This document shows, one piece after another, positions 11,317 to 50,550 of a stretch of DNA of 64,000 nucleotides. The position numbers and the translations under genes were made by a program. The stretch's first letter is position 1; each line of letters begins with the position of its first letter. The notes beneath the pieces were generated by a model. It was given only the letters and a program-made list of their open reading frames with translations. It was not told the DNA's origin and ran no database searches. Origin of the DNA: a virus (Duplodnaviria > Caudoviricetes); IMG/VR virus record IMGVR_UViG_3300031994_000053, positions 25,879-89,878 of that record, one strand, 5' to 3'.

Positions 11317-11525
11317 ACAAGCACCGGCACTGGGAGTACATGGTCGTCGCGGTCGGGGAACGCCCGGCCGCGACGCCTGACTCCCCCGTGTTTTTCAGCA
11401 TGAAGGCCGCGCAGGCCGAGAAGGACAGGCTCGATACCACGGATTGCATATACGACATCCCGAGCAAAGGCTACCGGATCGTGCGCCGCTGGGTCGAGCA
11501 CGGAAGATGGGAGAGGGTAAGATGA
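11313..11525 (+). CDS. Hypothetical protein (70 aa)
   Basis: GTGA overlap upstream with GGGGAGG RBS; ATGA overlap downstream. Confidence 0.6.
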   Translation: MNKHRHWEYMVVAVGERPAATPDSPVFFSMKAAQAEKDRLDTTDCIYDIPSKGYRIVRRWVEHGRWERVR

Positions 11526-15439: not shown

Positions 15440-18400
15440 TTACCTTCCCTCCCCCTCGAGTTCGTAGAACCCCGCGGCCCGCGGGTGCTCCCTGAAGAAT
15501 TCGAGATCCGCCTCAGTGTACTCTTCGGGCGTCTGCACGACTTTGATGCCGAATATGGTATCAGGTATCTTGTCCGTCGCGAGGAAATTGCCGAGGGCGG
15601 CGCCGCCGTTCGCGGCCTCGCGGACCTCCGGCCCGTACTCGATCGCCATGTTCGGGTTGGCATACGCCTGGCCGAGCATCAGGTACATGGCCCGCCCCTC
15701 CGCGTCACCGACCCGTGCACCGGACGACTTCACGCGCGAGCGCATCGACGCGACGGCCCGGTCGAACGCGCCCCCGAGCCGCAGGGCCGCACGGGCCGGG
15801 CGGTTCAGCGATGCGCTGTCAAACGGCGCCGACGGGTCGTACTTCATCAGCGCGCGGAAGAGCTCGCCGTAGTACTTGGCGAGCAGTTCCTGCGATGTGC
15901 TCTTCATGAGCGCGGCCGGGTCGTAGCCGTTGCGCCGCGCCTCGAGCAGCACGTCGTTGACCTTCGCGTACCGGCCGCGCCCGTCGCCGGTCGCGTAGCC
16001 GCGCCGGTCGTTCCGGGCCCAGAGGTCGAGCTGCTTCGTCAGCTCCTTGCCGAGCGCGGTCTTCGACGCGCCGCGCTGCACCGGCAGCGCCATCGAAACG
16101 AAACCGGCGTCCCGGTTCCGGGTCATCCCGCTGAACGAGAACGGCATCCACGCCTGCATGAGGTTCCAGGTCGCGCCGTCCACGGTGGGTGAGAGCCAGC
16201 GCTCGGCCCAGCCCATCTCGCTCCACGGGAGCGCCTGGGCCATGTAGCCGGGGTTGAACCCGAGAATGCCCTCGGTGACGCGCTGGGCCGGCATCGACAG
16301 CTTGGACAGGAATTGTCCGATCGGATCCTCGAACCAGCGGACCTCCTCCCACCCCTGCTTGCCGGCGTGGACGTAGACCCGGCGGTTGTACGACCCGTTG
16401 GCCGGATCGTCACCCATGTACAGCGGAATGAAGTCCGGCGAGACGCGGCCGGCGGTTGCACCGAGCCCGGCGCCAACCAGCCCGGTGAGCCAGTTCCCGC
16501 CTCCGGCGTAACCGGCCACGGCGCCTGCCGCTGCGCCGGCGACGCCCGCGCCGAAGCGCCCGCCCCGCTTGAACGAGCGGAGCGCGCCCCCGAGCCGCGT
16601 GTCGTCGAACCGCGCGATGGCGCGGAGCAGCGGGGTTATGTCCGCAGACTTCCAGCGGGCGCGGTCCTCGTTCTGCCACGTGAACCAGACGTCGCGGTTG
16701 TGCCAGCTGTGGCGGTCGGCATAGGCTGCCATCTCGAACCTGTCGCGCCCCCGCCCGTACTTCGCGAGGAATTCGGGCCCGCCCATGCCGGCGGTCGCCC
16801 GGGCGAACCGGACCTTCTCCGCGGCCGTGCGCTCCCTGTGGAACGCGGCGTAGAACTCCTCGTCGGACAGGCGGTCGTCGTCGTCCCCGTCCATGCCGCC
16901 CGCGGCGGCGTCGAGCACCTTCGCGAGCGCGGTGGACAGGATCTGGAGGACCTGCGGGAACCCGAGCATGACAAGCCCGAGCATCCGTGCCCAGCGCCCT
17001 ATGTAGTGCGCGCGCTCCTGGCGGCTCGCGGTGTTCGTGCCGAACGCGAGATCCTCGAGGACCTTGCCGCCCCCAGCCTCCCACGCGCCGCGGGTCCACT
17101 GCCACGAGAACATCAGCACGTTCAGGAGCCTGCGGTTCGCCGGATGCGCCCACGAGTACTTCAGCGGGTCGAGCCCGCCGACCTCGGCGTTGATGTAGTC
17201 CGCGTACTTCTTCAGGTCGCGGATCGGGTCGAACGCCTTGCCCTGGCGTTCGGCCAGGTAGCGGAGCTTGGTCGCGAGCTGCGCGGTCACGGCGAGCTTG
17301 GTCGCGTTGAGCGCGTAGTTGAACGCCTTGTCCGACTGGCGGAGCGCGACGTCGCGGGCCATGCGCCCGAACTTCGCCGCGATCTCCGCGCCGTAGGTGT
17401 CGCGGATTATCCGCTTCAGGTGGTCGAGATCCCCCTGCGTCATGGCCTGCGCGTCCTCAAGCGGGCTCACGAGACTCGTGGAGGTCCGCACGCCGAGCGC
17501 GTTGGCCCAGGCGTACAGCTCCGCGAGGAACGGGTCGTTCGAGTCCATCATGTCGACGATGTCCGAGAAGCCCAGGAAGTTCTTGGTGATCCAGGCGGGG
17601 CCGCCCGGGAGCTTCCGCAGGAAATCGAACGCTTTCGGGTGCTCGCGCATGTAGTCGGCGATTGGTTTATAGTTCCCGCCGAGCGTGGCGAGCGCGCCGA
17701 CCGCGGCGGTCGGGGACTCGAACCGGGTCGCCAGCGGGAAGAAGAACGAGAAGCTCACGCTCATCGCCTTCGACCAGCCGAGGGCGCGGTGCAGGAGGGA
17801 GCGCGCGGCGGGGCCGCCCGTGCCCATCGCCCGGCTCGCGCCGAGGAACTGCTGGAGGTAGCCGAGCGCCTCGCCCAGGCCGAGCTTGTCTATCGCGAAG
17901 TCCGCGATTCTTCCGTGCGGTGCGGCCTCCTCGGCCTCGCGGACGAGCCACCGCTCCACCGAGGCGATCGAGGCGTTCGCGTCCTTGTGCTCGCGGTAGC
18001 GGCAGGCTGTTTCCGGATTTGTCCCGAGAACACCCTTGTTGGCCGTCATCTTCGCCCGCAGCGCGGCGAACTCCCGCTTGGCGTTCTGGACGCCCGACAG
18101 CTTCTCGTCGTAGGCGTCGCCGTTGTACTCACACCACCAGCGGGCCACGTTCTGCCAGAAGGCGTCTGGCAGGCCGGAGACATCGGCCGCGATGTCGGAC
18201 GGGTCCGCGTAGTACACGGGCGCGCCGTCGTACGCGGGCGTCATCAGCATGTTCGCGAGAGTCGCCCGGGACATCATCGCGTTGGCGAGGCCGTCGATGG
18301 CCACGTGGACCTTGTGCCCGATCTGGTAGTTGGCCGGAAGGGTCCCGGTCCGGCGGAACATGTCGAGGTCGTTCAGGCCGACCGCGCCGCCGAACAGCTC

Positions 18401-21400
18401 GCCCCTTGTGAGCGCCGCGTCGCGGTACGCGTCCACGACGTCCATCGCGGCGCGGTAGTCGATCCCGGCCTCCTCCTTCGTCCCGAACTTCGCGGCCCAG
18501 GCGTTCTGGAGGCTCTTCGAGTAGATGGCTTCCGCCAGGCCGGCGTAGGTCGCGTCCGCGGGGAGCTCGAGCCCGGTGCGCCGTGAGCGCGCGGAGCCCG
18601 GCTCGAACCCGCCGGCCGCGATGAGGTCGATGAGAGGCTGCCCCGACACGCCGATGCCGTACAGATTGGACAGCATGTCAAGTCCGTTGATGACCTTGTC
18701 CGCCTGGAGGTCGCGGACGGGAACGTCGGCGAACTCGGAGTCGACGACCGCCTTCATGCGCTCGTAGTCGCGGCTTGCGGCTCCCTGCCGGTCCGCCGCG
18801 CGGTCGCGGAGGGCGCGCTGCGCGTTGTACATGAACACGCCGGAGCCACGCCAGAACGGGAGCGCCGTGCCGAAATTGCTGAAGTACGCGCCGTCGCCGT
18901 GGGTGAGCCACGGGTGCGCCTTCGCAAACCTGACGGCCTTCGAGTAGACGGCCATCATGTCCTTGATTATGGCGTCCCGGTCGAGCATTTCCGGCTTGCG
19001 GCCGCCCTTGTCGGACGTGAGCTTGCGGTACGCCTCGCTTCCGAGGAACGCGTCGTTGATTTCATCGCACGGAATCGTGGCGGCCGCGGACGTGAACCGG
19101 GGGAGCCCGTCGACGTCGTAGCGGTAGTTGTCGCGACACATCCCCTCGACGAGGCCCCTCTCCCGCAACGCGGATATGACGAGCGCGTTGTAGCGAGCGG
19201 ATGTCGGGCCACTGGCGCGGACTAACTTGTCGCCATCGGCCTCGGCCATGGCCGCGATGGCGCTGGCCACGAACCTCCTGCGGTACGGTTCGAGGATTTC
19301 CGGGGGTATCTGGTCGTCCATGCGACGCAGGGCGAACGACAGCGCGTCGAGTTGCTCCGAGTTCGCCAGTCGCCTCGCTATCGCCTCGCGGGAGTAGAAC
19401 GCGGGGTCACGGTTCATGCCGCCGTGGAACCGGATGTCGGCCACGCCAGTCACCACGCGGTCCTGGCGGGAGGCCCGGGCCGCGCACATCTTCTTGAAGA
19501 TGTCGATGATCCGAAGGTCGGATTCGGTCAGGACGATGTCGGCCAGCTGCCGGCGATAGTTGTCGAACTTGAGGTATTTCCCGCCGGCTGCCCACACAAC
19601 CTGGCCGTCTTCGAGTGCGTGCGTCGCATCGTGCTCCAGCAGCTTCAGGATGCGCCCGCCGGCCTCGACATTGTCGCCGAAGAGGAAGGCGTGGAAGTTC
19701 TCGAGCCTCGCGATCTCGCCCTTGATGGCGTCGTACTCGTGCATCTCGGCCGATAGCATCTCGCCGATGTTGCCCTTTGCGCCGAACGACTTGCGGATGA
19801 GCGACCGTGACCACGCGGAGACGTTTTCCGCGATGAAGCTGGACTGGTCGGAGTAGTCGACGAGCCCCGCGTCGCCAGCGAGGTTCGAGTCGCCAGCCGC
19901 CTGGGCCGCCAGCCACTCGGCCGCGGTGAGCCCGGCCGGGACGCCATGCCGCTCCCGCGCCGCCTTCTGGAACTCGAGGTCCTCGGGGGTCGCGGGCTCG
20001 GTGCCGGTCTCCCGGTAGAACTTCGCCATCGCGGCGACCTGGTAGGCCGCGGACACGCACGCCTTGAGGCCGCGCTGGAACTCGGGGTCGGAGACGAGGG
20101 CCCGGCGCCGGGCTATCACCGGCGCGTCGTCATCGTCGAGCAGCCGCGCCGTCGACACGTCGCCCCGCTCGTCGACCTCGTTCACCGGCACGAAGTCCGG
20201 CATCCGCCCGCGGGCGTCCGGCTTCCCGGCCCTCACGCCGGTCCACAGGGCGTGCATCACGCGGTCGATGGTCTCCGCCCCGTCCGTCTCGACGTACCGG
20301 GCGAGGCTTCCAGGGTCCTTCACCATCGCGGCGAGCGCGTCCATCTGCTGCTTCTGGAACAGCAGCTCGGCGGCGAGCTCGCCCCCCGCCCCGTTCTCCA
20401 TGGCGCGCTTCAGCCGTGTCCCCGCGGACGCCGCGGCCCGCGCCGCGACCTTCGACGGGGCAACCGGGTCGGAGGACGTTACCCAGGCGGAAACCTGGTA
20501 CATGCTCGCGTGGCGGGCCTTCGGGTCGCGGCGGAAGTCACCGGTGATCTTGTCGTGGCGCGAGTTCGCGGGCTTGGCCTCGCCCGTCGCGGCGTCCACG
20601 TTGGTCCTCGTTATGAAGCTCGCCTCGAGCGAGTGGTACATCCGGAGCGCGGCCTGGAAGGCTATGCTGTCCCGGATGTCCTTGTCGTTCAGCTTGCCGA
20701 GGGCTTCGGGGTTCACGGTCGCGAGGGCGCGGCGCAGGCCGTTCATCACGATGACGCGGTCGCGGGCCACCTCGCGCGGGTCGGGCAGCGCGTACTTGCG
20801 CGTAACGTATTCGAGCCCGCGGCTCCAGCTGCCGTCGGTCTTGAGCCCGTGTTCCATTGATTCCCTGATCCACCGCGCCGTCGCGTAGAAGTCGTTGGAG
20901 ACCGACAGCGGCAGCGTTCCGCGACGCACGTTCCCCGCCGCCGCGGAGGCATTGGCCGAGGGCGTGCCCGCCGGGTCGGCCGGCGTGGCCTCGAAGAAGT
21001 CCTCCGTGTCGGAGACGGGGGCGGCGTTCCGGTCGTCGGCCACGCTCCGGCGCGTCTCCGCGGACTCCGCGAGAAGGCGGCGGAACTCCGCGTCCGGGAC
21101 GCGCTCCTCGCCTGTCAGCCTCCGCATGACGCGGAGGTCCGCGGCGCGCACCTTTTCGGCGGCCTCGGGGTTGGCCAGCGCGAACTTGTGCCAGCGCTTC
21201 GACCTGCCGAAGTCCGCTATCGTGTTGCCGAGGACAGGGGCCTCGACGTTCGCGGCGGCCGCGGCCTCGAGCTCCTCGGGGGTGCGGACAGTTTCCGACA
21301 CGGCGGGCGCGAAGGCGTTGCTCAGGACCGACGCGATGGCGGTCTCGTCGCCCTCTTCGAGACGCGCGACGGAGTCGTACATGCCCGCTGCCTCGGCGAT

Positions 21401-24400
21401 CGCGGCCTCGTCGTCCGGGTTCTCGCGGGCGCGCGCGGCCGCGGCCTCGGCGGCTTCGGTGCCCGCCGCGACGGCCGATGCGATGGCCTCCTCGTTCCGG
21501 GCCCGGCTTGTCTCCGCAATCCCGTGCACCACCATGTTGAATACGGTGTTGTCGGTGGCGAAGCCCTCGTCCCCGTAGTTGAAGCCATTCTTGAGGGAAT
21601 CCCAAAAGCCCTTGAGGAAATCGAGGATGCGTTGGAACACCCCGCGGGTCTCCGCGCCGGCGACTCCGGCATCCCCCTCGACCCACTTGCGGAACGCCTC
21701 GGCCGCGGCTTCCTCGTTGAAGCCGTGGGCGCGGGACGGGTCCGTGCCGAACTGCTTGCGGAGCGCCTCGTAGTCAGCCTCCCCGAACAGCCCGATGGCC
21801 TCGAACATACGCATCATCGAGTGGAAGTACTCGTGGTACAGTTCGGTGCCCTTCGCCCCGGCAGGAAGCTGGATCGCGCCGACGAGCGTCTGCGCGCCCT
21901 TGCCGCTGAACGACCACTCGACCTTGTGGGACGTGACACCGCCGATCGTCGCCTTGCGGGCGAGTTCCTTGCGGATCTCGAGCGGGAGGCGGGCGAAGTC
22001 GTCGGCCGTGAACGGCCGTTCCTTCGTGCCGAGGTTCACCGCCGCGCAGTACGAGGCCGCGAAGGCCCGCGAGTTTGCGAGGCGCTCCACGTCCTCCTCG
22101 GTCTCGGCGCGGAGGCCCTTGCCCGCGGTCTCGACCACGATGGAGACGCGGCGGCCGAGACCGGCGTTCCCGCGGAGCTTGCCGCGGATCGTGAACGCGG
22201 TGCCGCCGAGGTACTCCACGTTCGCCCAGGACGAGAGCAACCTGCCCATCGCCCTCGCGGCGTTGGCGGCTCGCTCGTCATATGCCCCCTTCGACAGGAG
22301 GGTCGGACGCGCCGGGGGTTCCGGCGCGGCGTTTGGCACATGTCCGACGTTGTACGCGTCGACGGCGTTCACCATGCGCTCGAACCGGTCGCCCGAGAAC
22401 AGCTCGAGCGAATGGCGGAACGGGGCCTGGACCCTGCCACGGGGTTTTCCGGCGGGCGTCCGGGCCTCCGGCGCCATGTCGTTCGCGACGAGAATGGCGC
22501 GGGACTCCGGGCCCAGCGCGGCCTCGGACGCCGACAGCATCCGGTAGTACCGGTCCGGCAGGATGCCAAACAGGGACGGGGACGCGCCGGACGGCGTGCC
22601 GGTCACGCGGGACGTGACGAGCGAGTAGAACGGGAGGATCTGGCCGACCAGCATGGCCGGAGTCACCGCGTCTATGCCGTAGTTTTCCTTCAGCGCGCCG
22701 AGCGCCGCCTTGGCGTCTTCGGCCATTGCCTTCAGCTCTGCCGAGGCGTTGCCGGCTTCCTTGACGAGCGCGTCAACGTTATCCGCGGTAAGCGTGTAGC
22801 CTTTCGCCCGGGCGTATGACTTGGTGGTCGCGTTGGCCGCTTCCATGCCGTCGCCCTCGAATCCCACTGATACGCGACGTTCGCCCGCGTACGCCCGCCC
22901 CGCTATGACGTCGTCAAACATCGCGCGGACACGTTCGTTGGCCGCCGTGTCGTTCTCGCGGTACGTGGGGCCGATGCGAAGGAGCCCGTCGCCCATGCGG
23001 CCGTACGGGAAGTACTTGTGCGGCTTGCCGTCGGAGTCCTCGCCAAAGATGTAGTACGTCTGCTCGCCGTAGCCGGTGTCCCGGCGTGCGGAGATGTACG
23101 CGAACGCCTTGTTGCCGGCCGCGGAGTTGAATTCCTCCGAGGTCACGATGGACCGGTACATCATGCCGAACATGGCCTCGACGCCGCGGCGGAACGCCAG
23201 CACGGTGGGTGCAGGGGCCACGTCCTTGGTGGAGATTTTATCCGCGCGCTTTTCATATATGGCCGCCGATTGGAGATAAGCCTGTTTTTCTTCTCCTTGG
23301 GCCGATTCTGCGGATACGCGCTTATTAACCGCGGCCCTGCGGAGTTTCGCGGCTTCATCCGCCGCGACCGCGCGCCGGGAAACCTCGCCAGCCATCTCGC
23401 GCATCGCCGCGTACATTTGGCGACCGTCCTTGAACACAGAGCCCGCCACGGGAAACGCGGCGAGGCTCGAGAGGAGTCCGTGCACGTACGGGAGCTGCTC
23501 CGCGTTGGACTCGATGTGCATCGCGTCCCAGGACTTGAGCCGGTCGGACTCGGAGACCAGAGGCTCCTTGGGGTCGGTTCCGTCGCGGTACGCGGTCATC
23601 GCGCCTGCCATGACGGTCTGGAGGCCTTCGCCCAGGGAGTATGCCATCCGCGTCGCCGCGTGCATTCTGCTCAAGGTCCCGGCCAGAGGTCCGAGTCCCG
23701 GGATTTCAACAGCCTTGGCGACGTCAAAGGTCGCCTTACCATCTTCCGACGTAAACGCCTCGCGGACCGAATCGCCAAGCGCCGTGGCGTTGGGCGAGCC
23801 CGGGTCGGCCGTCAGGTAGTTGATCGCCTGGCCGAACGACCGTGCGTCGTCAAGTTCGCACTTCATGCCGAACCACCGGGCGAACGCGGGGGCGGACGAT
23901 TCGTGACCCGATGCCAGCCATGCGACATACCCGAACACGGGGTTGTGCCCGCCATCCTTTGCGAGCTCCGTTATCAGCTTCCGCCGTTCGGCCCGTTTAA
24001 GCCCGCTGTTCATGACAGTGCGGAACCACGCGGGGGTCGCGCTCCCGAGTTGCAAAGACCCCGACTCCCATGTAAGGTCCAGGGCCTTCTCCAGCCAAGC
24101 CTTTGTAATGTTGTTCGGATCCGCAGAGTCGCCGGCCACGGCCTTCGCCATGTCTGCGAATTTCGGTCCATTGGCGGCGCCACGGCGTGTGGCGGCCAAC
24201 GCCCAGAGGAACCGGCCGCCATTCTTGATGTCCTTGATGTACGCGCCGAGCACGTCGGCAAACGCCTGGTCCGTCACGGGCAGCCCGGAGTCCCCGGCCG
24301 CCACATAATTGAGGAGGTTCGCGTAGACACTTTCAAGCATCTCCCGCGTCCAGCCCAGACGGCCGCACAGCTGTTCCTTCACGTCGTCGAACGTCGCATT

Positions 24401-27400
24401 GGATATGCCGTCGAGATGGTAGGCGAACTTCCACCAGTTTTCGGACAGGCCCGCGTTGTTCCGGAACATCCGGGGGAATGCGTCGCTCGCCAGCCAGGCG
24501 AGATGGAGGTTACGGGCCAGCGCCACGGCGATGCCACGCGCGTCGCCGGCGTCCTTTGCGGAAGTCGACACTTCGGCGGCGACCTTCGGGTCCCCGAGGT
24601 CCCGTTTATCTTCATTGCTTAGCGTGGGCGGCAGCATATCGTGGCGCAGTTCCTCCGCGGCCGCTCCACTGACCGGGAACGCCTTGGTCGGTGCCGACAC
24701 GAGCCCGTCAGGCGCCAGGAACGTCTCGCGAGGCACTCCGGAATTTTCGGAACTGAACCGGTCGACCAGCTGGAGCTTGTTCCCCTCCTGGTCCACGGCC
24801 GCGTGCACCGGCATGTGGCGCGCCATCTCGAACAGCGCCTTGACGAACGTATTGGAAACCCGGCGCCTCGCGTCCTCGGAAATTTTGTAATAAACGTCCT
24901 CTCCGGCCTCTGTCGCCTCGTCGACCGGCTTCTCCGTGTCGGACTCGGGGTCGTACCGCCAGGCTTCCAGGAACTTGCGCGTCTTCTTGTCCGCCCGGAA
25001 CGTCGCGGCTTCTGTCAGAAGCGCCCGGACGCCGTCGGGGTTGTTTTCAATTTTGTCGGGGTCCCCTTGATACTGCGGTATCTCAGCCTCCGGCAGCTGG
25101 CCGGTCCAACTTTGGTAAAGCAAGTATGCCTTGGTCTTGTCACCGTCGTGGTCGCAGCCGAGAAGCTGGTTGGTGAACGGGTCGGGCTGGACCATCGCGT
25201 CGGCGCCGACGCGCCAGCCCAGGGTCTTCCCCTTCGTGTCCTTCTCCTCAATCTCCGTGGCGGGAAGCCCGGCGCGGACCACCTGGAGCCACATGGACCC
25301 GTTGTAGGACGGGGTGCGCGGCAAGCCGAACATGGTGCCACCGAGCACGATGTGCTTCTGCCCGGTCGCGTCGTTGAAGATCTGGTCCCGCGACTCGCAC
25401 ATGACGGCCGTGAGGTCGAACACCTGTGCACCGGTACCCTTCGGGTCGTCACGGAACAGGTCGTCGAAACCGAAGTTGTCCGCCGCGCCCGGTATGTCGG
25501 ATATGTACCGGCCGTGGTGGTCCTTGAAGCACTCCGCGATCCGCCGCCGGAGGGCCGACCTTTCACCCCTGTCCTTGGTCCCGCGCAGGTTCTCGAACAC
25601 CCGGGCGATGCCGAGCGCGACCAGCTGGCCGGAGGTGAGCACGCCTTCGTGGTCTTTCGTGTAGTCTAGCAACGCACCCGAAATCTCGCTGTCGAAAGCC
25701 GTCCTGAACTTACCCTCGTCGAGGAACCAGGCGTACCGGAAGTTGCGCTGCGAGTAGTTGACGTTGCAGAGCGCGAAGTTGCGGTCCGCGCCGTAGAACC
25801 CCCGTTCCGACTTGCTGTACAGGCAGGAGCCGCGCATCACGTCGCGCTGCATCTGGCTGGCCGACATCGTGAACAGCTTCCCGTTGTCGTCCAGCGCCGC
25901 GCCGGACGACACGAGAGCCATGTCCACGCCGCCGAGCGGGAGGTTGGACGCCTGCCGTATCTCAGCCCACACCTGGCGGGCGAGCTCCTCGCGGGCAAAC
26001 TGCCCGCCGGCCGACTCGCCAGCCTCGCGGAGCTCGTTGAAGTGGCGGGCGCGCCGGGTCACGGAGCGCACGTACTCCGGGTTGGAGTAGACCGCGTTGG
26101 CGAACACGCCCCAGTCGGCGATGAGACCGAGGGCTTTCTGCGCAAGGCCCGGCGCGTTGTCGAGCGCGCCAAAGCGGGCGAGCGCCGTGGCCATCGTGGC
26201 CATGTCGACCTCGTAGTTGCGCGGGGACCGGCCCGGGACGTTCGGAAGCCTGGAGTTGTGGGACACGTTGGCCACGGGATACGCCATCGCGCCGTCCTCG
26301 CGGTACGAGAAGTCGAGCGCGGGGCCGGACAGGCCCGGAAGGTAGCGCAGTTCCGCGCCCGGCAGCAGCTCGGACAGCTTCATCGTCGATTCGCCGCGGA
26401 CGTCGTCCTTCACGGCGATGTCGCCGAACATCGCATCCAGCTGGTCGCCGGACACGCCACCCCCGAACGCGGTCCGCAGGGCCTTGTCGAGCTCGTCGAA
26501 CAGCACCTGCTTCCGCTCCCCGTCCTTGAGGTCGCCTTTACTGAACTTGCCGTCAACCGCCTTGTCGAACGCGAGGTCGTAGATGACCTTCATTAGGGTC
26601 CCGCCGTATTTGCGCTCCTGCCCGCCGACGATCGCCTTGACAGTGACCGTGATGGACTTGGACGACAGCGGGCCTATCTTGTAGGAATCCCTGTCGGTGA
26701 AGACGTCGGTGGACAGGTCGTCCGCGCCGCGGTACTTCGCGAGGTAGTCGTCGATGGCGCGGTCGGCGGAACCGGGCGCGAACTCGCCCGACCCGGAGGA
26801 CGTGGCGACGGACAGGGATTTGCCGAAGAACAGGTCGCGGCCCTGCGTGGAGATGAGGTGGACCTTGAGCAGGGACGAGGATGGGTCCTGCGCGGTCTCC
26901 TTCAGGGCGCGCGCCGCATAGCCGCGCATGAACGTGGAGCCGAGGAGCGCCTCGTTGGGCTTCTTGGCGTAGCCGTTCTCGCCGCCGAAGCTGAAGTCCC
27001 CGTCGTAGAACCGGAAATTCTCGCCGACGTGGATGCGGTTCTCGCCCCATGTGCGGTTGCCATCCTGGCCCACGCGAGTGCCAACCATGCCGACGCCCGT
27101 GGCCTCAAGGGATGAGATCGCGGAGCGCTTGGCGTCCACGCCCATGAGGGCCATGCCGATCGCACGGTAGACGGCCTTTGACGCCTCTTCGTAGGAAGGT
27201 ACGTGTTTTTTATCAGACGGTTGAGTCGCCGCCGGCGTTTCCTGGCGTAGCCGCTGGCGTGCCTCAGAAAGCGCTTTTGGGAACTCCGTGGCCCAAATGC
27301 CACGATCTTGCGTGTGGGTAAATGTCGCAGACCCCGTGTCAAGCAAAGCTCGCTTCGCCTCCGGGTTCTGCCGGAACGACTCGAAAACCAAGTCGCGCAT

Positions 27401-30400
27401 CAACTGCACATTGGTCCTGGTATCTGCCTGTCGGAAGCTGCGAATCTTCTTGCCCGCCGCCCACCTCTGTCGGTAGGTTGTTTCATCGAACGACCCGCTT
27501 TTCAGTGTTTGATACGCGTGCTCGACGGAAACGTAATCATGCCCCTGGAAAGAGAATGGCCGACTCGCCAAATTGCTGAACTCGGCGTTTTCGCCCGTCC
27601 CATGCCAAACGTTTATCGGGCCCTTAGGCTGACTAACAGTTTGGGTCGGTTGCTGCGCAACTTGCTGTAGGGCCTCCACCGTCAAATCAACCTCGCGCGG
27701 TATCTGGAGCAGCGTGTTGGACGAGTGGTCGCCAGAGAACAGCGGGACATAGTACGTCGTGCGCTTCTGATCACCGGCCATCGCCTCGTAGGAACGGCGG
27801 CAAGCCTCATACACTTCGTTCGGGCTGAAGCTGGCCGACAGGCACTTCGCGCAGATCGGGGTCCGCGCGGCATCCGGCCACGTGGCGTCCTGGCGGCACT
27901 CGGCTATGACCTCGTCAGTCACGCCGGGGAAGAACCGGCGGCACGTCTCGGCGAACGTCGGGAGCGTGGTCCCGTCCGCGAGCTTCAGCGCGGTGGACTC
28001 GTCGGCGTAGAGCCAGCGCGACACGAGGGGCACGAGGTCCCGGGGCGCCACGGCTATCGAGGACGCCTTGGTCCCGCGCCGCTGGTCGATCTCGGCCGCC
28101 ATGATGGTCGTGGGGAGGCTGTTCTGGAAAATGTCGAGGACGGAGAACACGGGGCTCTCCATCGCCACGCTGGACGACGCGCCGGCGACGCCCGCGGCCT
28201 GCGGGTTGCCGGTCGCGATGGCGGCCGTCATCACGGCGGATATGTCGGAACGCGACAAGTTCCCGGACATCCGGGACAGCGAGTCGAGCGCATAGGCTAT
28301 CGTGTCGATGAACTCGACCGTCTGGGCCTTTGGCTGGTACTTTGTCTTGTCGGGGCGCTCGATTTCCGCCGGCACGGGCATTCCGTCCCGTATGCGCAAC
28401 GCGGTCACGCCATTTGAATACCCGTGCGGGCGTAACGTAAGCGCCAAATTCTGCAACACCTCGGTCCGTACGCGGGCAAGCTGTGCGAACGCCATGTCGG
28501 AAGACAGCGCCGTGCAGAGCGGGGACTCGCGCCCGAACGCCTGCCCGATGATGCCGGACAGGACCCGCATGTTCTGCTTCACGGCGGCTATGAGCTGCGC
28601 GCGCGTCGCGTTGGCCGGTTGCTTGGGTGCCCAGCCGGCCGCGTCGTCGGCAGCCTTGAGCAACTGGTCCTTCAGTTCCCTTGCCTTGGCTGCGGGCCGC
28701 CCGTCGAGCTCGGCGAAGCTGTCGGCCACAAGGGACTCGGCGATGCGGCCGCCCCCGCGGGACTGTGCCTCGCGGATCACCATGCCGCCGCCCTCGTTCT
28801 CCTTGAGGGCTATCGGGGTCGCCGCGACGGAGTACGCCATGAGGCGGGCCAGGCGGAAACGCCCGTTCGGGCGCATCGAGGTCAGATAGGAAAGGAGGAA
28901 CGCGCCCTTGCGGGACACGGGCCTGCCGTCCGTACCGTTCCCGAGGAGCGACCGGATGTACCCGTTGGCCTCCTCGCCGCCGAGCTTCAGGAGGTCCTCG
29001 CGGAGCAGGGCGTCGTGCTGCGGGAGCGACGCCCCCTCACGGTTGGCCCTCGGGTTGAGGATGCGGTACAGGAACTTCCCGGCGTCGCTGGGCGCCGCGT
29101 CGGCGCGCACCGACCCGCGGGCGAGGCGGACGAACCCTTGGAGGTTCGCGCCGGTTTCCGGGGACGCCTTCGCGGCGAGCGCGAGAAACGTGCGCATGGC
29201 GTCGGACGTGTACTCGTCGACCGCGACACGGTTGTAGTCGTCGGACGAAAGGCTCTCGTCGTCCTTCACGTCCTCGGCGAAGAACCACACGCCGGACGAC
29301 GCGGCGTCGGACCAGTCCCCCCGGTTCCTCACGCGGTCGTCGTCCATGCGGGTGTACGCCGCCAGGACCTCGGCGCGGTCCGCGGCGTCCATGCCGGGGA
29401 ACATCTTTCGGAGGACGCCGGCCACGCCGGCGCGATTCACGGGTTCGCCGCTCGCCAGAAGGGCGCGGACGGCGACCGCCGCGGCCGTGTCGGCCTCGCG
29501 GGGCTCGAGGTGTCGGCCGGCGGGGCCGACCTCCAGCCCGTGCATCACGGTGAAGCCGTCGAGGTTCGCCGCGTCGGGCGCCATCGCCGGGAGCTCGCGA
29601 GTCCCGCCGAACACCACGGTGGGGTCGTCTTCGAGCACGATGTCGTCGTTCGTCGTGTCGTCGTTCGAGTCGATGGCCGTCACGCTGCGCGGACTCCAGG
29701 TGGCTCCGGCGCGGCCGCCGAGGTCACTTGCGCGGACGACCCGCGCTCCCGTCTCGGCCTGGACCTTATCAAGATTTGTCGCAGCGTCCTTCGCGGCGTC
29801 ATCGGCTGCCTGGTACTCGGCGCGTGCCCGGTTCACTTCTGCATTGAGGTCTTCAACAGATGCGCCGGACTCCGCGGCGGCTTCGGCCACGGCCTCCGTC
29901 CCCTCGACCCGTGCGGCGGCCGCGTCAAGTTTGGCCATCGCGTCAATCACATTCCTGCGGGCTTCGTTCCGTCTCTCCTCCGCGTCGACTTTTGCGTTTG
30001 CCGCCTCGGCCACGCGTTCCGCCGGTGTCTGGTCCACATTGTACAGCGCGCGCTTGATCTCGCCGAGCATCCCGCGGGCCGCCGTCTTCTGGGCCTCGGT
30101 GACGGTCGGGTCGGTCACCGCGTCCTCCATCAGCTTGGCCATGACCTTGGTGAACGCGCGCGGGACACTGCCCTCGCGGGTCATTTCGGCAGTCCTCTTG
30201 AGCACGCCGACGAGCCTGGACATGAAGTTGAGGTGGGCTTCCGCGGCCTCCGCGGCCGTGGCCTTCGGGGTCTCGGCCTCCTTCGCCGCCTCCTTCAGCT
30301 CCTCGGTCTCCTTCGGGGACGCGGCCTCCCGCGACGCACCCTCGGACTTCAGCATCGATGTCATGCCCTGGAGCATCCGGTCGAGGAACTGGGAGTACGT

Positions 30401-33400
30401 CATCCCGGCGGGGAGCGACGCCTCCAGCGACTTCCTCATCGCCTCGGCGTCCCCGTCAGCCCACGCCATCAGGGCCGCGACGCCGCGGGGTTCGGCCGGG
30501 GCGGACTTGTCCCGGTTCGCCGCGCGGACGGCCTCGGAGAGGAACCCGTCGCCGCCAAGCACGAGGTCCGCCGTGTTCATGAAGAACGCGTAGGACGGCA
30601 GCCTGCGGGCGCGCTCGGCAAGGACCGCGGCGGCGCGGAGGAACGGGTTCTCCTTGTACTTCTCGGCGCGATTCAGCACGAACGCCGATACGATGCGCGC
30701 GAACCCCTCGCCGGTGAGTCCGGCTGTGTGGCGGGCCTCGTACCGGCCGTCCTCGGTCTCCACCACGACGTCGGAGCCGCGGAGGTAACTGTCGCGGAAG
30801 TTCCTGATCTGTTCGGCCAGCGGCACGTCCTTCGCCTTGTAGGCGTCCTCGATGGCCTGGTCGGCCACGGCGGAGAGCTGCCGGATGTAGTCCGCCGTGT
30901 TCTCGCCTGTCGCGCCGGTGGACAGCAAATGCCCGCGGTTGAGGAACGCCCGGAGCATGACACCGTTCAGCACGGCATCCATCATGTCGGCGTTGACCGT
31001 CGGGTCAACCTGGATGAAGACATCGGACGAGACATTGGCGACGCGGCCCGCGGACATCTTGAACGTGTACCTCGGGTGCGTGTACGCGGCAGCTTCGCCC
31101 GTGACGGCGGACGATCCGTCTTTCTCGACGCCGTGCCGCGTGAGGATGCGCTCGCCGACCGTCATGTAGCCAGTCTCGCCCCAGACGCGCTCCCACGCCT
31201 TGCGCTCGTCCGTGCCGGCGTCCGCGGTCTCCCCGCGCGCCGCCGCGGCGAGCTCCCTCGCCAGGACATCGCGCGCCGCGTCCTCCTCCAGCAACTCGCC
31301 CGATTCCTTCTGGCGGAGCATCGGATGGAGGCTGTCGTTCTGCGCGGAGACGCCGCCGAGCGCCCTGTAGTACTCGCCGGAGTAGCCCAGCTCACGGAGC
31401 GCGTGGAACATGTCGCCGAACTCGATGACCTTCGCCTGGGTGATGACATACCTTCCGCGCTCGCGGGCCCAGCCGTGCTCCACCAGGGACGCGACGGCCT
31501 CGTCACGGGTGCCGAAGGTTTCGGACGCCTGCCCGTCGATGCCGACGACCCACTTGCCGCCAGTCTCGCGGAGACGCGCGCGCTCGGTGCCGTTGGGCGA
31601 GAGCCTTGCGGCCATCCCGCGAAGGTCCTCCACGGGCTTCGAGTAGTATTCGGTGCCGCGGTCCCTGTCGGCCGTCAGCAACTTGGCCATCCTGAAGATC
31701 TCGTCATTGCGTGCGGCAAGGCCCTTTTCGGTGCCGTCGAACCCGCGGCGCATCGACTGCGCGACGGACTCGAACACAATGCCGTCGACATCCGACACGT
31801 TCGCCTTGCCCCCGATGTACTCGATCGCGTCGGCCGTGGCCGTGCTGACCGCACCCCCGCGAAGAATCTCGGCCAGGGGCACGTCGCCCTCGTCGGTGCG
31901 TATGCGGTGGAGCAGGCCGTCTTCGCCGACGATCCTCGCGGCGGCGTCGTACACGGCTATGGCCGCGAGGTCCGACCTCGAGTTCACCGCGTTGTCGACC
32001 GCCTGGACGACCTTGCCGTCCACGTTGGCGCTATAGCTAAGGCCCCGGACGACAAGGTCCGTAGTCGCCCGCAGAATGTCGCGGTACGCGGCTTCCACCT
32101 CGTCCCGGTGCGCTTCCGCGAACTCCTCCGCGGGAATGACGCTGGTTTCGTCAACGGCCGTCTTGTCCTCCGTCAGGCGGTAGAGCACGGGCTTGCCGTC
32201 GCGTATGGCGGACAGGTACGGGCGCGGGTCCGCCGGGTCCTCGTGGTGCGCGGCTGCGTACTCAAGGGCCTGGGACCGGAACAGCCCCTGGGAAAACGAG
32301 CGGAGCTGGCTGACGGTGGTGTCCGCGCGCATGATGTCGCGGGCCCTCTGGGCGAACCGGCGCTGTGCCTCGTCCAGGACTTGTGCCTGGGTTGGCTTCC
32401 CGCCTTCGGCCTTCACGGCCATCTCGCGGCGCGTCCGGAGGTACTCCTCGCGGAACCCGCTCTTGAGCGCCTTGACGGTGTTTTCCTCCAGCCCCATGTC
32501 GCGGGCCGTCCACTGGGACGGGTTGACGGCGGCCATGCCGAAGTCGCCCGTGGCGAGCGCGGCGGCGAACCCGACGATCTTGTGCGCGGCGCGACGGTAC
32601 CACGCGGGCTCCTCGCCCTCGAGGTGCATCTCGGACGTATAGAGGTCGCGGGCCAGCTCCGGCGCGTAGTCCGCAAGATTGTCGCGGGCGGAAAGCCCCG
32701 CCTCGGCGTCGCGCGCCGAATAGGTCGGGGTCAGCTTGTTCATGAGGTCGTCCGCCAGGAAGCGGCTCGGGATGAGTGGGACGGCGAGCAGCTCGCCGTT
32801 CGCCTTCGCGACTTCATCGACCGTGGCGGAGAAGCTGTTGTGGCGGGCCTCGCGGCGCTCCACGACCTTTGTCGTCTCGGCGATCTGCTCCTCCAGGTCC
32901 TTCGCCTTGGACTCGTCGCCGGCGGCACGGGCCGCGTCGCGAAGCGTCCCGAGCCGCTCGATCTCGGCGCGGTCCTTCTCCTGTAGCATCTCGTGAACGC
33001 CGACATAGTCGCTCCACGTCATCTGCGCGGGGTTCGTGACGCGGTTCACCTCGGCAATGGCGTCGAGCCGCGCCCGCATCTTCGTCAGTTTACCCTCGCC
33101 GCCTATGGCGGACTGGGCGCGGAGAGCCAGGGTCCTGGTCACGCCGGGGATCGCGAAGCCAACGGCCTCCGCGACCAGCTGGTCCCAACCGGGAAGCGCG
33201 CCGGCCTTCGCGCTGGCCAGGCCGGCCTTGAGGTTGCGCCAGAACTTCTCCGGCTCGGACCGCCACTTCGGTCCGTCGGGGTTGGCGTCGAGGCCGAGCA
33301 GCCCGTTAACCACGTCGGCGTAGCGCTCCTCGAACATCTCGCCGAGAACGCCGTCGTAGCCGCCGGTCCGCCACAGGTTGAGCACGGATTCGGCGCCAAG

Positions 33401-35309: not shown

Positions 35310-35338
35310 AGAATACCACACGGAGGCCCGGTTGTCAA
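35310..35338 (-). promoter_or_regulatory. Sigma70-type promoter with extended -10 for the giant gene
   Basis: Minus strand: TTGACA, 17 bp, TGG-TATTCT; GGAGG at 35302-35298; ATG 35287. Confidence 0.85.
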
Positions 35339-37534
35339 CTAGATGCTGTTTTTCTTTTCCGCTTCAGATTGGCGGAGCGCCTCGCTAACCTTTTTGGTCT
35401 GCCAGTCCCGACGGGCCCTGTCTTCGGCTTTGAGCCGTATGCCCAACGCCCTTTGGCTACTCATGTACTGGTCGAGAGACACGCCTTCCGCTTCAGCCTG
35501 TTGCGTCCGGTCGCCCCAGCCTTCTGCAACGAAGTCTTGGGCAATGTTCCCCCCCTTGTCCCGGTACTGATATTCAACGTCGACGGGATTGCCGTTCTCA
35601 TCGACGTTCTTTTGCAGGTAAAGGTACCGTCCCTGCGCTAAAACACCCAAAAGCAGGTCTTCAACGTCGTCGCCGGAAAGACGCGCTTTTTCCAGCTCGG
35701 CCATCTTTCGAGCAACGTACATGGTGGCGGCCGCGTCGTCGTCCGGATATTCCTGCTTGTAGTGCGCCGTCAAAAGCTCGCGCCACCTCTTATGGTCGGA
35801 GTCGCGGCCGGTATTCGCGGCAAGCCACGTACGGAGCTCCTCTTTATCACGGTCGCTTAACCTGGATGACATGCCCGCGTCGTTAAGAACGCCGTTGAAA
35901 ACGTCCTCCACCACCATCTGCGTCCCGCCGGATTTTGTCCAGGCCGACCACATGGCGAGGGCCAACGTATTGCGCAGTTCCTTGGAACTAAAGGGGATGG
36001 CGTCACCCACTACGTTCGCGAGCCCACGGAACATCGTGCGTTTTGCGTCATCGTCGCCAACGATGGCCTCCCGGGCCCCGTCTACTGTGGTCGATCCGTC
36101 GGACAGTCGCGGGACGAATGCGCCGGAGACGACCTTATCGAACCCCCAGGCCACGCCGTCGAGCCCCATAAGCTCCGAAGACTGGAGGATCGCTTTTTGG
36201 CGGGCCTCCGCGCCAGACCTCACGTCAGTGTAATGCGCATCAGGCCGACTTGCCCCGCGGACTCCCGTAGAAAGCGCAGATCGCAAAGACGCTAGCTCGC
36301 GAGCGTAGCCGGGGGCATCGTCGCCAACCATCCCGGCGGCGACCCATCTTCCCATGCTATCGCACCAAGAAGACCCGGCGTCCGCAGCCGCGCCAGCCAC
36401 ATTGACGTCCATCAGTTCCCACCAAGCGACTTCGTCGAAAAGCCGGCGCATACCTTTCGCGAGTGCAGGGGACGTGGGGTCGATCGGACGCCCGCTTTCC
36501 CTGATGGCGTCGAACGTCTTGCCCAACGCGGCGTTGAACATGAAAACGGACTGCGGGTCTGGTTTGTTCGGGTCGGTAAGTCCCGCAAGCGCGGCTTGCC
36601 GAAGAATACTGTATGTCGACGCGGTTTTGGCGGCGAGAGATTCTCCCGTGTCGGTATCGTTCCGCAAATTTTCCCCGATCTTCTGGAACAGGCCGAGGGC
36701 GCTCGCAAAACCTCCAACACCCCTATGACGTTCCACCACATCCCGGAGGACAAGACCGGCGCTGCTGCCGAACGTTCCTTCCAACTTGGACAAATTGTCG
36801 AAATCGCCGTCATTGTCCGTATGCGATATGTAACCAACCAGGTCGCTTAGCTGAACGGAAAACTCTGGCGTCACCTTATTGTTCTTGGCGTCCAGCAAAG
36901 GGTTGATCGCCTGCTGCATTAAGACACGTGCAGTCTCTCCCCTCTCTCCGAAATACATATCGGCCGCTGCATCGGAAAACCCCAGGCTTTGAAGTGACTT
37001 CCTTTTATACCCCTGGTATGTCGCGTTTAGACCGAGCACCTGGCCAATCGTCGTCTCTTCGTCTCCAGCAAGAACCTTCAACTGGTCGAAATCCCCCCGC
37101 AGCAAAGCATCAGACCGCTCGGCAAGCACCCGGCCCAAGCTTCCGGCGCTCCGTACCTTGTCACGGGTGAAGTCAACGAGGTCATTCAGATTGCCCTGGA
37201 TTATCGAACGAAAATCGTCGTACGATTTTTGCGCCCCTGCGAAATCGCCTGCGTTGACCATCGCCTGAAGCTTTTTTCCAAACCCCTCCGAATCCATCAC
37301 GAAACGGGCGAGCATATCCCCGCCCTCTTCCTCAGGACGCAAACGGCGTGCCAGGCTCGATTCGACTTCACGCGCCTGCTTCTCCCGCCTGTCGCGAACC
37401 CTTTCCTCCGCTTTGGCCCGCTCCATGACCGGATCCTTCTTTGGGGTCTCACGCCCGATGGTGGCCATATCATTCCACCCGCGCGTAAATTCGGGGCCCG
37501 AGTATCTGTCAACGGTGAATTCAGCCATCATCAT
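35339..37534 (-). CDS. Putative internal virion (ejection) protein, 731 aa
   Basis: Helical, Ala/Gly-rich, no enzyme motif; sits between the adaptor and the giant gene. Confidence 0.6.
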   Translation of the reverse strand: MMMAEFTVDRYSGPEFTRGWNDMATIGRETPKKDPVMERAKAEERVRDRREKQAREVESSLARRLRPEEEGGDMLARFVMDSEGFGKKLQAMVNAGDFAGAQKSYDDFRSIIQGNLNDLVDFTRDKVRSAGSLGRVLAERSDALLRGDFDQLKVLAGDEETTIGQVLGLNATYQGYKRKSLQSLGFSDAAADMYFGERGETARVLMQQAINPLLDAKNNKVTPEFSVQLSDLVGYISHTDNDGDFDNLSKLEGTFGSSAGLVLRDVVERHRGVGGFASALGLFQKIGENLRNDTDTGESLAAKTASTYSILRQAALAGLTDPNKPDPQSVFMFNAALGKTFDAIRESGRPIDPTSPALAKGMRRLFDEVAWWELMDVNVAGAAADAGSSWCDSMGRWVAAGMVGDDAPGYARELASLRSALSTGVRGASRPDAHYTDVRSGAEARQKAILQSSELMGLDGVAWGFDKVVSGAFVPRLSDGSTTVDGAREAIVGDDDAKRTMFRGLANVVGDAIPFSSKELRNTLALAMWSAWTKSGGTQMVVEDVFNGVLNDAGMSSRLSDRDKEELRTWLAANTGRDSDHKRWRELLTAHYKQEYPDDDAAATMYVARKMAELEKARLSGDDVEDLLLGVLAQGRYLYLQKNVDENGNPVDVEYQYRDKGGNIAQDFVAEGWGDRTQQAEAEGVSLDQYMSSQRALGIRLKAEDRARRDWQTKKVSEALRQSEAEKKNSI

Positions 37535-37537
37535 CTC

Positions 37538-39219: not shown

Positions 39220-39227
39220 TGGACCTC

Positions 39228-41727: not shown

Positions 41728-43845
41728 CTAGCCGACCGTGATGGTCGCGCCCTTGTCGACCGCATAGGCGGCCCCGCCGGTCGGGCCCTCGACCTGGACG
41801 AGGATCGTCTTGGTCGCGGGCGCGCCGATGACGTAGCCGACCGTCGGGCCGGTGGCCGACGCCGTGCGGGAGGCCGCGCCGGTGAGGCCGGTGGCCCCGC
41901 CCGCGATGTCGACCGTGAACGCCAGGCCGGTCGCGCCGATGTCGGACGCGGGCCCTGTGACGGTCACGGTCTCGCCGGCGGTATCGGACGCGACGGTCCA
42001 GGCGCCGTTGGCGTAGGTCGCGGTAAACGGGCCGGTGGCTCCGGTCACGCCGCCGAAGTTCCAGGCGCTGAGCGTCTTGGTCGTGAGGGCGACCTCGTCA
42101 CCGACGCCGACGAGAAGCGAGGACGCGAGCTCAAGCTCGATCGTGTTCTCGCCAGGCAGCGCGGCGGTGGCGCCGGACGTGACCGCGGTCTTGGACGCGG
42201 TCGGGTTGACCTTGACGTTCTCCGCCGGGCACATGCTCGGGAGGGCCTGGACACAGCGGCGGTAGAGGACCGAGAAGCACTCGAACACGCAGAGCTCGGG
42301 CTTCGGGACGATTTCGAACTCACCGTAGAAGTTGCCGATCTTGCCGTCGGGGTTCTTGTCCCAGCTGACGATGTTGCGCCAGCCCCACTTGCCGTTGAGG
42401 CCCGTGACCGGCCCGAAGTACGTTCCGGAACCGAGGGTCGTCGGGCCCGCCGGCACGAACAGGTTCGTGAAGACCTTGTTCATGAACACCGGGGCGATGG
42501 CGATCTCGGCCTTGTAGTAGTCCGGGTTGTACACGGGGATCGGGGCGCCGTTGACGCCGGGGCGGTTCGGGTCGGCCTTGCGCGGGGGGACGAACTCCGC
42601 GATCCAGACGGCCTTGTCGGCGAACTCCCTGTAGCCGACCATGCCGTACTTCCTGGCGACCGCCTCGGTGTACGAGGGCTCGAACTTCTTCAGCTTGAAC
42701 CGGAGCTGGTTGCCATCGTTGGTGATGACCCAGCGGCGGAACGTGCTCGGCGCGAAGCCGTAGTGCTGGATGAGCGCGCGCGGGTCGGCCTCGATCCAGT
42801 ACTTGCGCTCCTCCTCGTTGCCGCGGATGTAGCGCTCGACGTCGTCGTGGCTGACGGCGAGGGCGAACATCGGCTCGCCGTTGCCGGACGAGACGGCCGC
42901 CTCGGGGCACTGGACCTTGAGGTACTCGCGCACCTGGTCGAGCATGTCGAAGTTCAGGGGTTCGAGTTCGACGGTGGCGTCGAAGACGATGAACGGCTTG
43001 TCGACCGTGCCGTACTCGGCGTGCCCGTCGGAGCCGTTGCCGTCGGAGGCGTCGAACTTGACGAACGGGTTGTACACGTAGCGCGGGGCCGCGAGCAGGT
43101 CGGTCATCTGCGAAGTCATCATGATGGACTTGCCCGCCATCACGGACTGGTAGATGAACATGTCGCGGTTCCAGACTTCCTGCATGTCCATGCCGTAGTT
43201 GGCGCCGGTCTCGAGAATCCAGCCGAGCTGCTCGACGGCCTTGTCGACGAACTTGAGCGTGTCGAGGCAGATGGGGTCGGAACCCCAGCCCGCGCGCTTG
43301 CCCTTCCAGGCCATCGTCTCCCAGCCGTACTGGTACGTGTCGTACTTCAGCGGGGCGCAGGGGTCGTGCTGGCCGTCGGGCCACGGATCGATGTCCTCCC
43401 ACTGCGACAGGCCGGCGTAGGTGCTCAGGCCGCCGCGGTAGACGCGGGTCTCGTGGACCAGGCCGTTGAACAGCTGGAACGCGCCGCGGGGGATGCGGGA
43501 GAACCACCAGCGGGGGCTGGCGATCTCCTTGCGCTGCACGAACGGGTCGAAGTGCTGCGCGACCGTCATCATCATTTGGTTGTAGCGGCCGTACTGGTCG
43601 GTGACGCTACCGGTTCCGGCCGGGTCGTAGGGGTTTGCCCAGGGGCCCTTGTACTGAATGACGCCGCGGCCGGGACGGCCCGCCGCGCCCGAAAAGTCCA
43701 GCACGGTGTCGTTTAGCGTGTGGGCGACGTCGGCCGGGTTGAGGGAAGTCGTGATGCCGGGCTTCCCGGTGAAGGTGGAGTACATGTCGGCCTGCGGGTT
43801 GTTCGCGTTGCCGGTGACGACTCCGTTGACTATGATGTCTGCCAT
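41728..43845 (-). CDS. Major capsid protein with Thr/Ala/Gly-rich C-terminal extension (705 aa)
   Basis: Follows portal and scaffold; dedicated promoter and AAGGAGG; most extreme GC3 bias in the window; R..F..FNG motif region. Confidence 0.75.
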   Translation of the reverse strand: MADIIVNGVVTGNANNPQADMYSTFTGKPGITTSLNPADVAHTLNDTVLDFSGAAGRPGRGVIQYKGPWANPYDPAGTGSVTDQYGRYNQMMMTVAQHFDPFVQRKEIASPRWWFSRIPRGAFQLFNGLVHETRVYRGGLSTYAGLSQWEDIDPWPDGQHDPCAPLKYDTYQYGWETMAWKGKRAGWGSDPICLDTLKFVDKAVEQLGWILETGANYGMDMQEVWNRDMFIYQSVMAGKSIMMTSQMTDLLAAPRYVYNPFVKFDASDGNGSDGHAEYGTVDKPFIVFDATVELEPLNFDMLDQVREYLKVQCPEAAVSSGNGEPMFALAVSHDDVERYIRGNEEERKYWIEADPRALIQHYGFAPSTFRRWVITNDGNQLRFKLKKFEPSYTEAVARKYGMVGYREFADKAVWIAEFVPPRKADPNRPGVNGAPIPVYNPDYYKAEIAIAPVFMNKVFTNLFVPAGPTTLGSGTYFGPVTGLNGKWGWRNIVSWDKNPDGKIGNFYGEFEIVPKPELCVFECFSVLYRRCVQALPSMCPAENVKVNPTASKTAVTSGATAALPGENTIELELASSLLVGVGDEVALTTKTLSAWNFGGVTGATGPFTATYANGAWTVASDTAGETVTVTGPASDIGATGLAFTVDIAGGATGLTGAASRTASATGPTVGYVIGAPATKTILVQVEGPTGGAAYAVDKGATITVG

Positions 43846-50533: not shown

Positions 50534-50550
50534 TTATGTCTTTCTCCCTC

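Follow-up and report, generated by a model that had tools for sequence, protein, structure and literature searches.

Does the 6,615-amino-acid (aa) protein encoded in this phage DNA contain an RNA polymerase (RNAP), and if so, at what point of the infection would a tailed phage use it? We examined this question in the window, that is, the whole 64,000-nucleotide (nt) stretch at positions 25,879 to 89,878 of IMG/VR record IMGVR_UViG_3300031994_000053. A first-pass annotation, made from the letters of the DNA, had proposed a single-chain two-barrel RNAP that is ejected from the virion as part of this giant protein. With a probability of about 80%, we conclude that the giant protein carries in its middle an active DNA-dependent RNAP, a single-chain two-barrel enzyme of the branch that includes crAss gp66, QDE-1 and the enzymes of P23-45, and that it serves as the virion RNAP (vRNAP) of an undescribed family of tailed phages with genomes of ~90–98 kb that probably infect Kiritimatiellia.

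A polymerase core in the middle of a giant protein

The open reading frame (ORF) at 15440–35287 on the minus strand does code for 6,615 aa. Two large protein searches returned ~80 homologues, mostly 6,000–7,600 aa long and with core identities of 28–43% by blastp. An alignment of 82 rows built from these homologues is the basis of all residue counts given here. Every residue that the first-pass annotation had picked out lies where it had been placed (D2762 at nt 27002–27004, K2808, K2823, K2870, R3324, and D3379–D3383 at nt 25139–25153), and the lysines, the RxP motif and the Asp triad among them proved to be near invariant, far past chance. In the following list of features, equivalence to residues of phi14:2 gp66 and QDE-1 was assigned by motif, not by superposition. 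Model confidence is given as predicted local distance difference test (pLDDT).

15440..35287 (-): gene of the giant polyvalent protein with the RNAP inside, 6,615 aa; homologues alignable over nearly the whole length
24188..27247 (-): predicted two-barrel RNAP core, aa 2681–3700 (the modelled part), from an AlphaFold2 model and fold matches to gp66, QDE-1, the P23-45 and P74-26 RNAPs and RDR2
27122..27136 (-): D2718-x-K2720-R2721 in the helix preceding barrel 1, 93–96% conserved
27002..27004 (-): D2762, Asp of a 'DG' motif; kept as Asp by only 11 of the 82 rows in a column that is 55% gaps, start of a loop with pLDDT below 50
26951..26953 (-): E2779, probable metal-B acid ahead of the barrel-1 strand-helix; Glu in 61 and Asp in 16 of 80 rows
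26819..26866 (-): barrel-1 lysine pair K2808 (with H2810) and K2823, near invariant
26678..26695 (-): D2865-x-D2867-x-x-K2870, 99/99/98% conserved; matches gp66 D1062–K1065 in a non-significant HHalign alignment
25310..25318 (-): R3324-x-P3326 of barrel 2, each in 81 of 81 rows; compare the R-X-P loop of QDE-1
25139..25153 (-): catalytic Asp triad D3379, D3381 and D3383, each in 80 of 80 rows
24482..24589 (-): long helix aa 3567–3602, putative bridge helix (model helix 887–922); the gp66 alignment covers the bridge helix and trigger loop of gp66
24353..24412 (-): conserved block aa 3626–3645, putative trigger loop; most positions 85–95% conserved, likeness to gp66 1608–1615 by eye

K2808 and K2870 are kept in 80 of 80 ungapped rows and K2823 in 80 of 81. 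The 15 residues that separate K2808 from K2823 equal the spacing of K1012 and K1027 in gp66. By eye, the order of the motifs also pairs with that of gp66 (E2779 and D962, K2870 and K1065, R3324 and R1322, the Asp triad and D1361/63/65), and a similar reading of the gp66 sequence makes K2720/R2721 the likely counterpart of gp66 K893/R894 and QDE-1 R671. QDE-1 contains four acids, D709 in barrel 1 and three in barrel 2, in addition to K743, K767 and an R-X-P loop (PMC9508822). We take E2779 as the counterpart of D709, which would place it in the metal-B position that D962 probably holds in gp66. The first-pass annotation had instead relied on D2762. This residue was misassigned: its scarcity among the rows and its gapped, low-confidence loop rule it out as the metal-B acid, and E2779 is the better fit.

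Position 2 of the catalytic motif varies among the homologues (H in 67, N in 11, Q in 1, F in 1), and G3382 at position 4 occurs in 98% of the rows. The DHDGD sequence had been described as a variant active site. The opposite is true: Gly at position 4 is canonical (DxDGD), and the variant is found in crAss RNAPs, which carry Ile or Val at this position (10.1101/2020.03.07.982082).

AlphaFold2 produced a model of aa 2681–3700 from 29 sequences with a pLDDT of 85.6 and a predicted template modelling score of 0.88; residues 2762–2775 are of low confidence. When this model was searched against the PDB with Foldseek, phi14:2 gp66 was the sole match below an E value of 0.001. VIA-align also placed gp66 at the top (Z 12.2, root-mean-square deviation (rmsd) 5.1, 580 residues aligned, 10% identity), and its ranks 1–13 are single-chain two-barrel RNAPs without exception. 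A wide search independent of Foldseek returned gp66 (Z 12.3), P74 gp62 (9.2), QDE-1 (8.8), RDR2 (8.2) and P23-45 gp96 (7.2), followed by unrelated helical rows at 5.2. Model residues 3–1019 align with gp66 839–1661 and residues 22–982 with QDE-1 646–1140. Judged by these two alignments of the model, both barrels, the connector, the bridge helix and the trigger loop would reside in one chain. Matches in BFVD are largely crAss and uncultured-phage proteins, and the ESM Atlas gave unnamed matches only, all below 0.9. Conservation, fold searches and gene context thus support the proposal that aa ~2700–3700 of this giant late protein are a single-chain two-barrel RNAP.

Sequence searches with Pfam, PHROGs and the PDB did not see the RNAP part; their sole match in the giant protein was a NADAR-like domain. 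A profile search of the PDB gave no hit for the RNAP either. In 50,697 GenBank phage records, tblastn detected no relative of the giant protein at an E value of 1. No stand-alone RNAP relative of 507–2,081 aa was found by a word-based search, which also missed known fragments, and no second conserved DxDGD protein was found across the family genomes.

Probable delivery modules and promoters

The phage genome is circular (89,878 bp, 155-nt terminal overlap, 65.6% GC) and is one of six family members of 90–98 kb (G000 to G005; the five others measure 91–98 kb). In all six the giant gene is the last of the structural arm. Its surroundings and its modules outside the RNAP core include the following.

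35310..35338 (-): sigma70-type promoter (-35 and extended -10) of the giant gene; equivalent site before the giant gene in G001–G004
27203..27685 (-): variable cargo slot, aa ~2535–2695, with a NADAR-like domain at aa 2566–2671 (Pfam NADAR E 9e-6, below cut-off; phrog_1017 E 5e-9)
21821..21835 (-): HExxH (H4485) of a zincin-like metallopeptidase, family assigned by motif and PMC5512222
14174..15439 (-): lysozyme-LysM protein that follows the stop of the giant gene with a 0-nt gap (Pfam Phage_lysozyme E 2e-10)
35339..37534 (-): 731-aa protein adjoining the giant gene upstream, possibly an ejection protein; a gene of 690–1,050 aa lies there in 6 of 6 genomes

The cargo slot directly precedes the RNAP core and measures 39–1,076 aa between fixed anchor motifs. 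In about half of the homologues it is empty, here it holds the NADAR-like domain, and in others it holds different modules; domains seen in relatives are DUF1848, ART-PolyVal and an exonuclease. A second insertion site at aa ~2737–2745, just within the RNAP core, accommodates inserts of 100–670 aa (P0004 aa ~2701–3368, P0018 ~2920–3102, P0031 and P0007); the P0018 insert is probably the ART-PolyVal domain of that protein. The HExxH motif is present in 71 of 71 full-length giants and is preceded by an aromatic residue in 65. Only one hydrophobic segment was found in the 6,615-aa protein. Two divergent relatives, P0085 and a 7,367-aa protein of G155, carry the lysozyme domain of this gene at the C terminus of the giant itself. 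The divergent clade with this fusion (~25–33% identity) was seen at L169:2331–20000 and L170 (G155:C159) and in P0085.

Polyvalent proteins are large delivered chains that combine a metallopeptidase with interchangeable effector domains, and N4-like vRNAPs carry such a peptidase and sometimes lysozyme or ART (PMC5512222). The giant proteins likewise join the universal HExxH to a slot with differing cargo, in a late-gene context. Because two relatives contain the fused lysozyme and all full-length giants the peptidase motif, as N4-like vRNAPs and gp96 carry a metallopeptidase, we infer that the giant chain is a polyvalent ejection-type protein that would be packaged and ejected.

Sigma70-type extended -10 promoters also stand before the capsid and replication genes. 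The early cluster of each genome, 10–17 kb of small genes that starts at the strand switch, is nearly devoid of such sites and has none at its head. The head carries a bipartite element instead, in which a C-run lies ~30 nt before the core ATCGTCAGT, 150–310 nt ahead of the first gene. In G000, G001, G003 and G004 the 9-mer of this element is single-copy and always at the early head, with 0.2–0.3 copies expected per genome. G002 contains a variant at the same place, and G005, which was added afterwards, has the element at the strand switch, for a total of 6 of 6 genomes. In G000 (locus L042) it occupies 5078–5119, outside the window. No early promoter that recurs within one genome was detected, and an IMG/VR scan with a loose pattern of the element gave mostly chance matches. 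An AT-rich island that lies ~1.4 kb inside the early cluster of G000 (L042 6490–6720, 39% GC in its 500-nt block; similar in G001–G003) is a possible replication origin.

In phi14:2, middle and late RNA comes from the host RNAP and early RNA from gp66, with no common early motif found. The split between sigma70 sites and the early-head element matches this division of transcription, and because of the role of gp66 in it we consider the element a candidate vRNAP promoter.

From these data we propose the following course of infection. Host sigma70 RNAP would transcribe the giant gene at middle or late times from the promoter observed upstream, and the chain would be packaged with the neighbouring ejection proteins. 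By analogy to N4 and P23-45, it could enter the next cell threaded like beads on a string; the opening in the wall would be made by the lysozyme, and the chain may be cut by its HExxH peptidase. The observed pattern suggests that the RNAP then starts at or near the early-head element and transcribes the 10–17 kb of early genes. The cargo slot may co-deliver counter-defence domains, such as the NADAR-like domain seen here. Finally, the host RNAP would take over the replication and late genes from the promoters present there.

Family, host and alternative explanations

The six genomes have in common a helicase, a PD-(D/E)XK nuclease, PolA and a 773-aa replication protein, as well as TerL, portal, scaffold, capsid and the giant gene; G005 was compared for the structural part alone, by tblastn. 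Two of these genes were located as follows.

41728..43845 (-): 705-aa protein, probably the major capsid protein; similarity of Atlas features to SU10_MCP 0.93, only 133 shared; 44–64% identity in five relatives
57083..60040 (-): terminase large subunit (TerL) with a LAGLIDADG insert, a probable intein; PHROG terminase E 1.6e-24, Pfam Hom_end and LAGLIDADG_3

The capsid model is poor (pLDDT 44.5) and matches several capsids weakly. The same protein has a C-terminal beta-barrel extension at aa ~550–705. The TerL homologues of G001–G004 match only ~473 aa of the window's TerL. Other observations in the window concern a glycosyltransferase at 11444–13486 (phrog_13126, E 1.6e-102) that was not found in the five relatives, and two stretches of lower GC (54–59%; ~35400–40700 and ~50500–53150) whose 731-, 412-, 496-, 607- and 270-aa genes have a poor or no match in the relatives; these stretches may be tail or ejection modules that were exchanged recently. 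A 225-aa helix-turn-helix protein at 7481–8158, similar to sigma70 region 4 (E 6e-6) and kept in G001–G004 after the replication genes, is a possible terminase small subunit or regulator.

The capsid, the portal and the C-terminal part of TerL have zero tblastn matches in the 50,697 GenBank phage records, crAss isolates included. Judged by sequence, the six genomes are an undescribed phage family that matches none of these records and has no sequenced isolate; a literature search, which covered few subscription papers, found no description of it. The IMG samples 3300028805, 3300028832, 3300028886 and 3300031992 are presumably rumen metagenomes. The phage had been called unlike Crassvirales on the grounds of GC content, PolA and a different capsid. 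This view stands as far as capsid, portal and TerL lack a sequence match, so that the phage is not recognisably crAss by sequence. The argument from PolA (~25% identical to that of small siphoviruses) fails, since this enzyme is common in crAss-like phages (PMC7886860), and a two-arm layout like that of phi14:2 leaves room for deep kinship. IHF, gene 74/75, DnaG and DnaB were not found by Pfam or PHROG on the main ORFs, with small ORFs partly scanned and the 773-aa replication protein without assignment.

Clues to the host came from a shortened homologue in bacterial DNA.

L016:6799–16941 and L019:10001–20142: truncated 3,380-aa RNAP-peptidase homologue on a bacterial chromosome, ~40 contigs

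RecA of one genome with this chromosomal copy (G006) shows 92–93% identity to proteins that bear the name Kiritimatiellae, one of which falls into the same 90% cluster. A second genome of the Kiritimatiellia order contains the giant and capsid genes on short contigs, and the host GC content agrees with this assignment. Taken together, these sequences indicate that the phage probably infects Kiritimatiellia. A search for spacer-like DNA in 319 genomes of the order gave chance-level short matches besides the G155 phage contig, with CRISPR (clustered regularly interspaced short palindromic repeats) arrays unchecked. Anaeromicropila, named in the title of the metagenome-assembled genome (MAG) of G005, is probably a label due to mis-binning: the 91-kb contig is a whole phage, and the capsid gene occurs in 0 of 400 other genomes of that order. 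The literature searched contained no described phage of the PVC class that is the probable host.

The 3,380-aa copy lacks ~1,900 N-terminal and ~2,000 C-terminal alignment residues and retains the catalytic motif and the peptidase. It is flanked by a low-GC defence-like cassette (reverse transcriptase, TOTE-type TPR protein, AAA15/DUF3696 pair) and by alpha-2-macroglobulin/PBP1C genes. G006 has no capsid-gene match, and the fetched flanks contain no other family gene. Domestication of the phage RNAP by a bacterium is nevertheless an unlikely explanation. The alleles differ by 1–4 changes and some are split, which may indicate a recent remnant; 1 synonymous and 2 non-synonymous changes and 1 frameshift were counted. 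Were the copy domesticated and active in defence, it would be a present-day example of the transfer from phage to cell by which eukaryotic RNA interference (RNAi) polymerases have been proposed to originate.

Among the alternatives to an active vRNAP, catalytically dead barrels that serve as scaffold in a structural protein are hardly credible. One Kiritimatiellia chromosomal allele is frameshifted, but the Asp triad, RxP and the lysines are invariant in proteins that are 25–50% identical, and because of this invariance we regard the barrels as probably active. An active enzyme could also work inside the cell without entering the virion, freed by the peptidase for late transcription or primer synthesis. 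This reading would make sense of the giant gene having its own host promoter, and the same fold occurs in a non-virion enzyme, P23-45 gp64 (Z 9.3). Still, we judge it improbable: late genes already have host promoters, the gene sits in the structural arm, relatives carry the lysozyme fusion, and phi14:2-type middle promoters also precede the crAss gp66 gene. Just as improbable as a sole explanation is a packaged, active RNAP whose main job is to pull in the genome by transcription from one entry-end site, with early expression as a by-product. The single-copy element at the strand switch fits this idea, as does the proposal that gp96 transcribes during DNA translocation, yet such a role is compatible with early transcription by a vRNAP and does not exclude it.

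A further reading concerns ancestry: the phage could be a very deep-branching member of Crassvirales, and its RNAP a diverged gp66 orthologue fused to neighbouring cargo proteins. The best fold match is indeed gp66, several crAss proteins appear among the BFVD matches, PolA and the PD-(D/E)XK nuclease are present, and a ~90–100 kb genome has two arms that meet at the RNAP cluster, which is also the layout of phi14:2. On the other hand, capsid, portal and TerL remain unmatched in the phage records and in a profile comparison with phi14:2 (a test that also misses the real RNAP–gp66 homology), the catalytic motif has Gly instead of Ile or Val, the host clues point away from Bacteroidota, and the other giant segments show no similarity to phi14:2 gp76 or gp78. 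We consider this origin quite unlikely.

The preferred interpretation, an active vRNAP of a Kiritimatiellia phage family, also has points against it. The fold likeness is modest (rmsd 4.5–6, ~10% identity), and profile alignment of the RNAP with gp66 by HHalign is non-significant (probability below 1%). The depletion of sigma70 sites in the early region (2 seen, 7.9 expected, P 0.01) is inflated, as the borders were set at the first sigma70 site, and the early-head element may instead serve packaging or mark a terminus. The host call rests on two MAGs, and a third copy is in the MAG titled Anaeromicropila.

Relation to known virion RNA polymerases

The closest system by fold is gp66 of phi14:2 (PDB 6VR4; 10.1101/2020.03.07.982082). 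Both enzymes have the two barrels in one chain with corresponding motif order and spacing; in both phages the gene closes the structural arm, and host promoters precede middle and late genes. In contrast to the 6,615-aa chain with Gly at motif position 4 and mostly Glu at the metal-B site, gp66 has 2,180 aa, Ile and Asp. Its phage infects Bacteroidota and shows no common early upstream motif, whereas one conserved candidate was found here. There is no detectable sequence similarity between the two, and the gp66 family is characterized by a cleft-blocking self-inhibition domain.

Thermus phage P23-45 is GC-rich, and its gp96 is the GC-rich, non-crAss precedent for an RNAP in a giant protein. 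This 5,002-aa virion protein contains a two-barrel RNAP and a metallopeptidase (PDB 8H2M/8H2N; 10.1101/2022.12.01.518664) and shares the Gly-type motif with the enzyme described here. In gp96 the RNAP is clamp-less and N-terminal in the tape measure of a very long tail, and the phage has a second, non-virion RNAP; here the RNAP is central, with no tail tube recognised and no second RNAP found. N4 gp50 is likewise a giant ejected multidomain RNAP encoded among late genes (PMC13434306; PMC5512222). It has ~3,500 aa and a T7-type polymerase module, unlike the two-barrel enzyme of our confident model. Polyvalent proteins (PMC5512222) share the delivery design, and the RNAP module discussed for them is of the N4 type; NADAR, DUF1848, ART-PolyVal and an exonuclease are the domains of this kind among the homologues here. 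The eukaryotic RNAi polymerases QDE-1 and RDR2 (PMC9508822) have the same single-chain two-barrel fold (Z 7.4–9.4) with R-X-P, Asp triad, fourth acid and lysines, but they are not virion-delivered and use Asp as the fourth acid.

The RNAP of the giant protein therefore falls within the two-barrel superfamily and belongs to neither the gp66 family, the N4 type nor the gp96 type. By analogy, it would work as virion RNAPs of the crAss type do, with delivery in a polyvalent chain of the N4 type, and a chain of 6,000–7,600 aa would join the two designs. Giant virion RNAPs outside crAss are already known; what is added here is a new phage family, with its cargo slot, a candidate promoter and a copy in a bacterial chromosome. 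Besides crAss and P23-45, the family would be one more independent setting in which single-chain two-barrel virion RNAPs occur, and it would supply a new outgroup for tracing where eukaryotic RNAi polymerases came from. Its early-head element offers a direct test of the way in which gp66-type enzymes locate early genes on double-stranded DNA.

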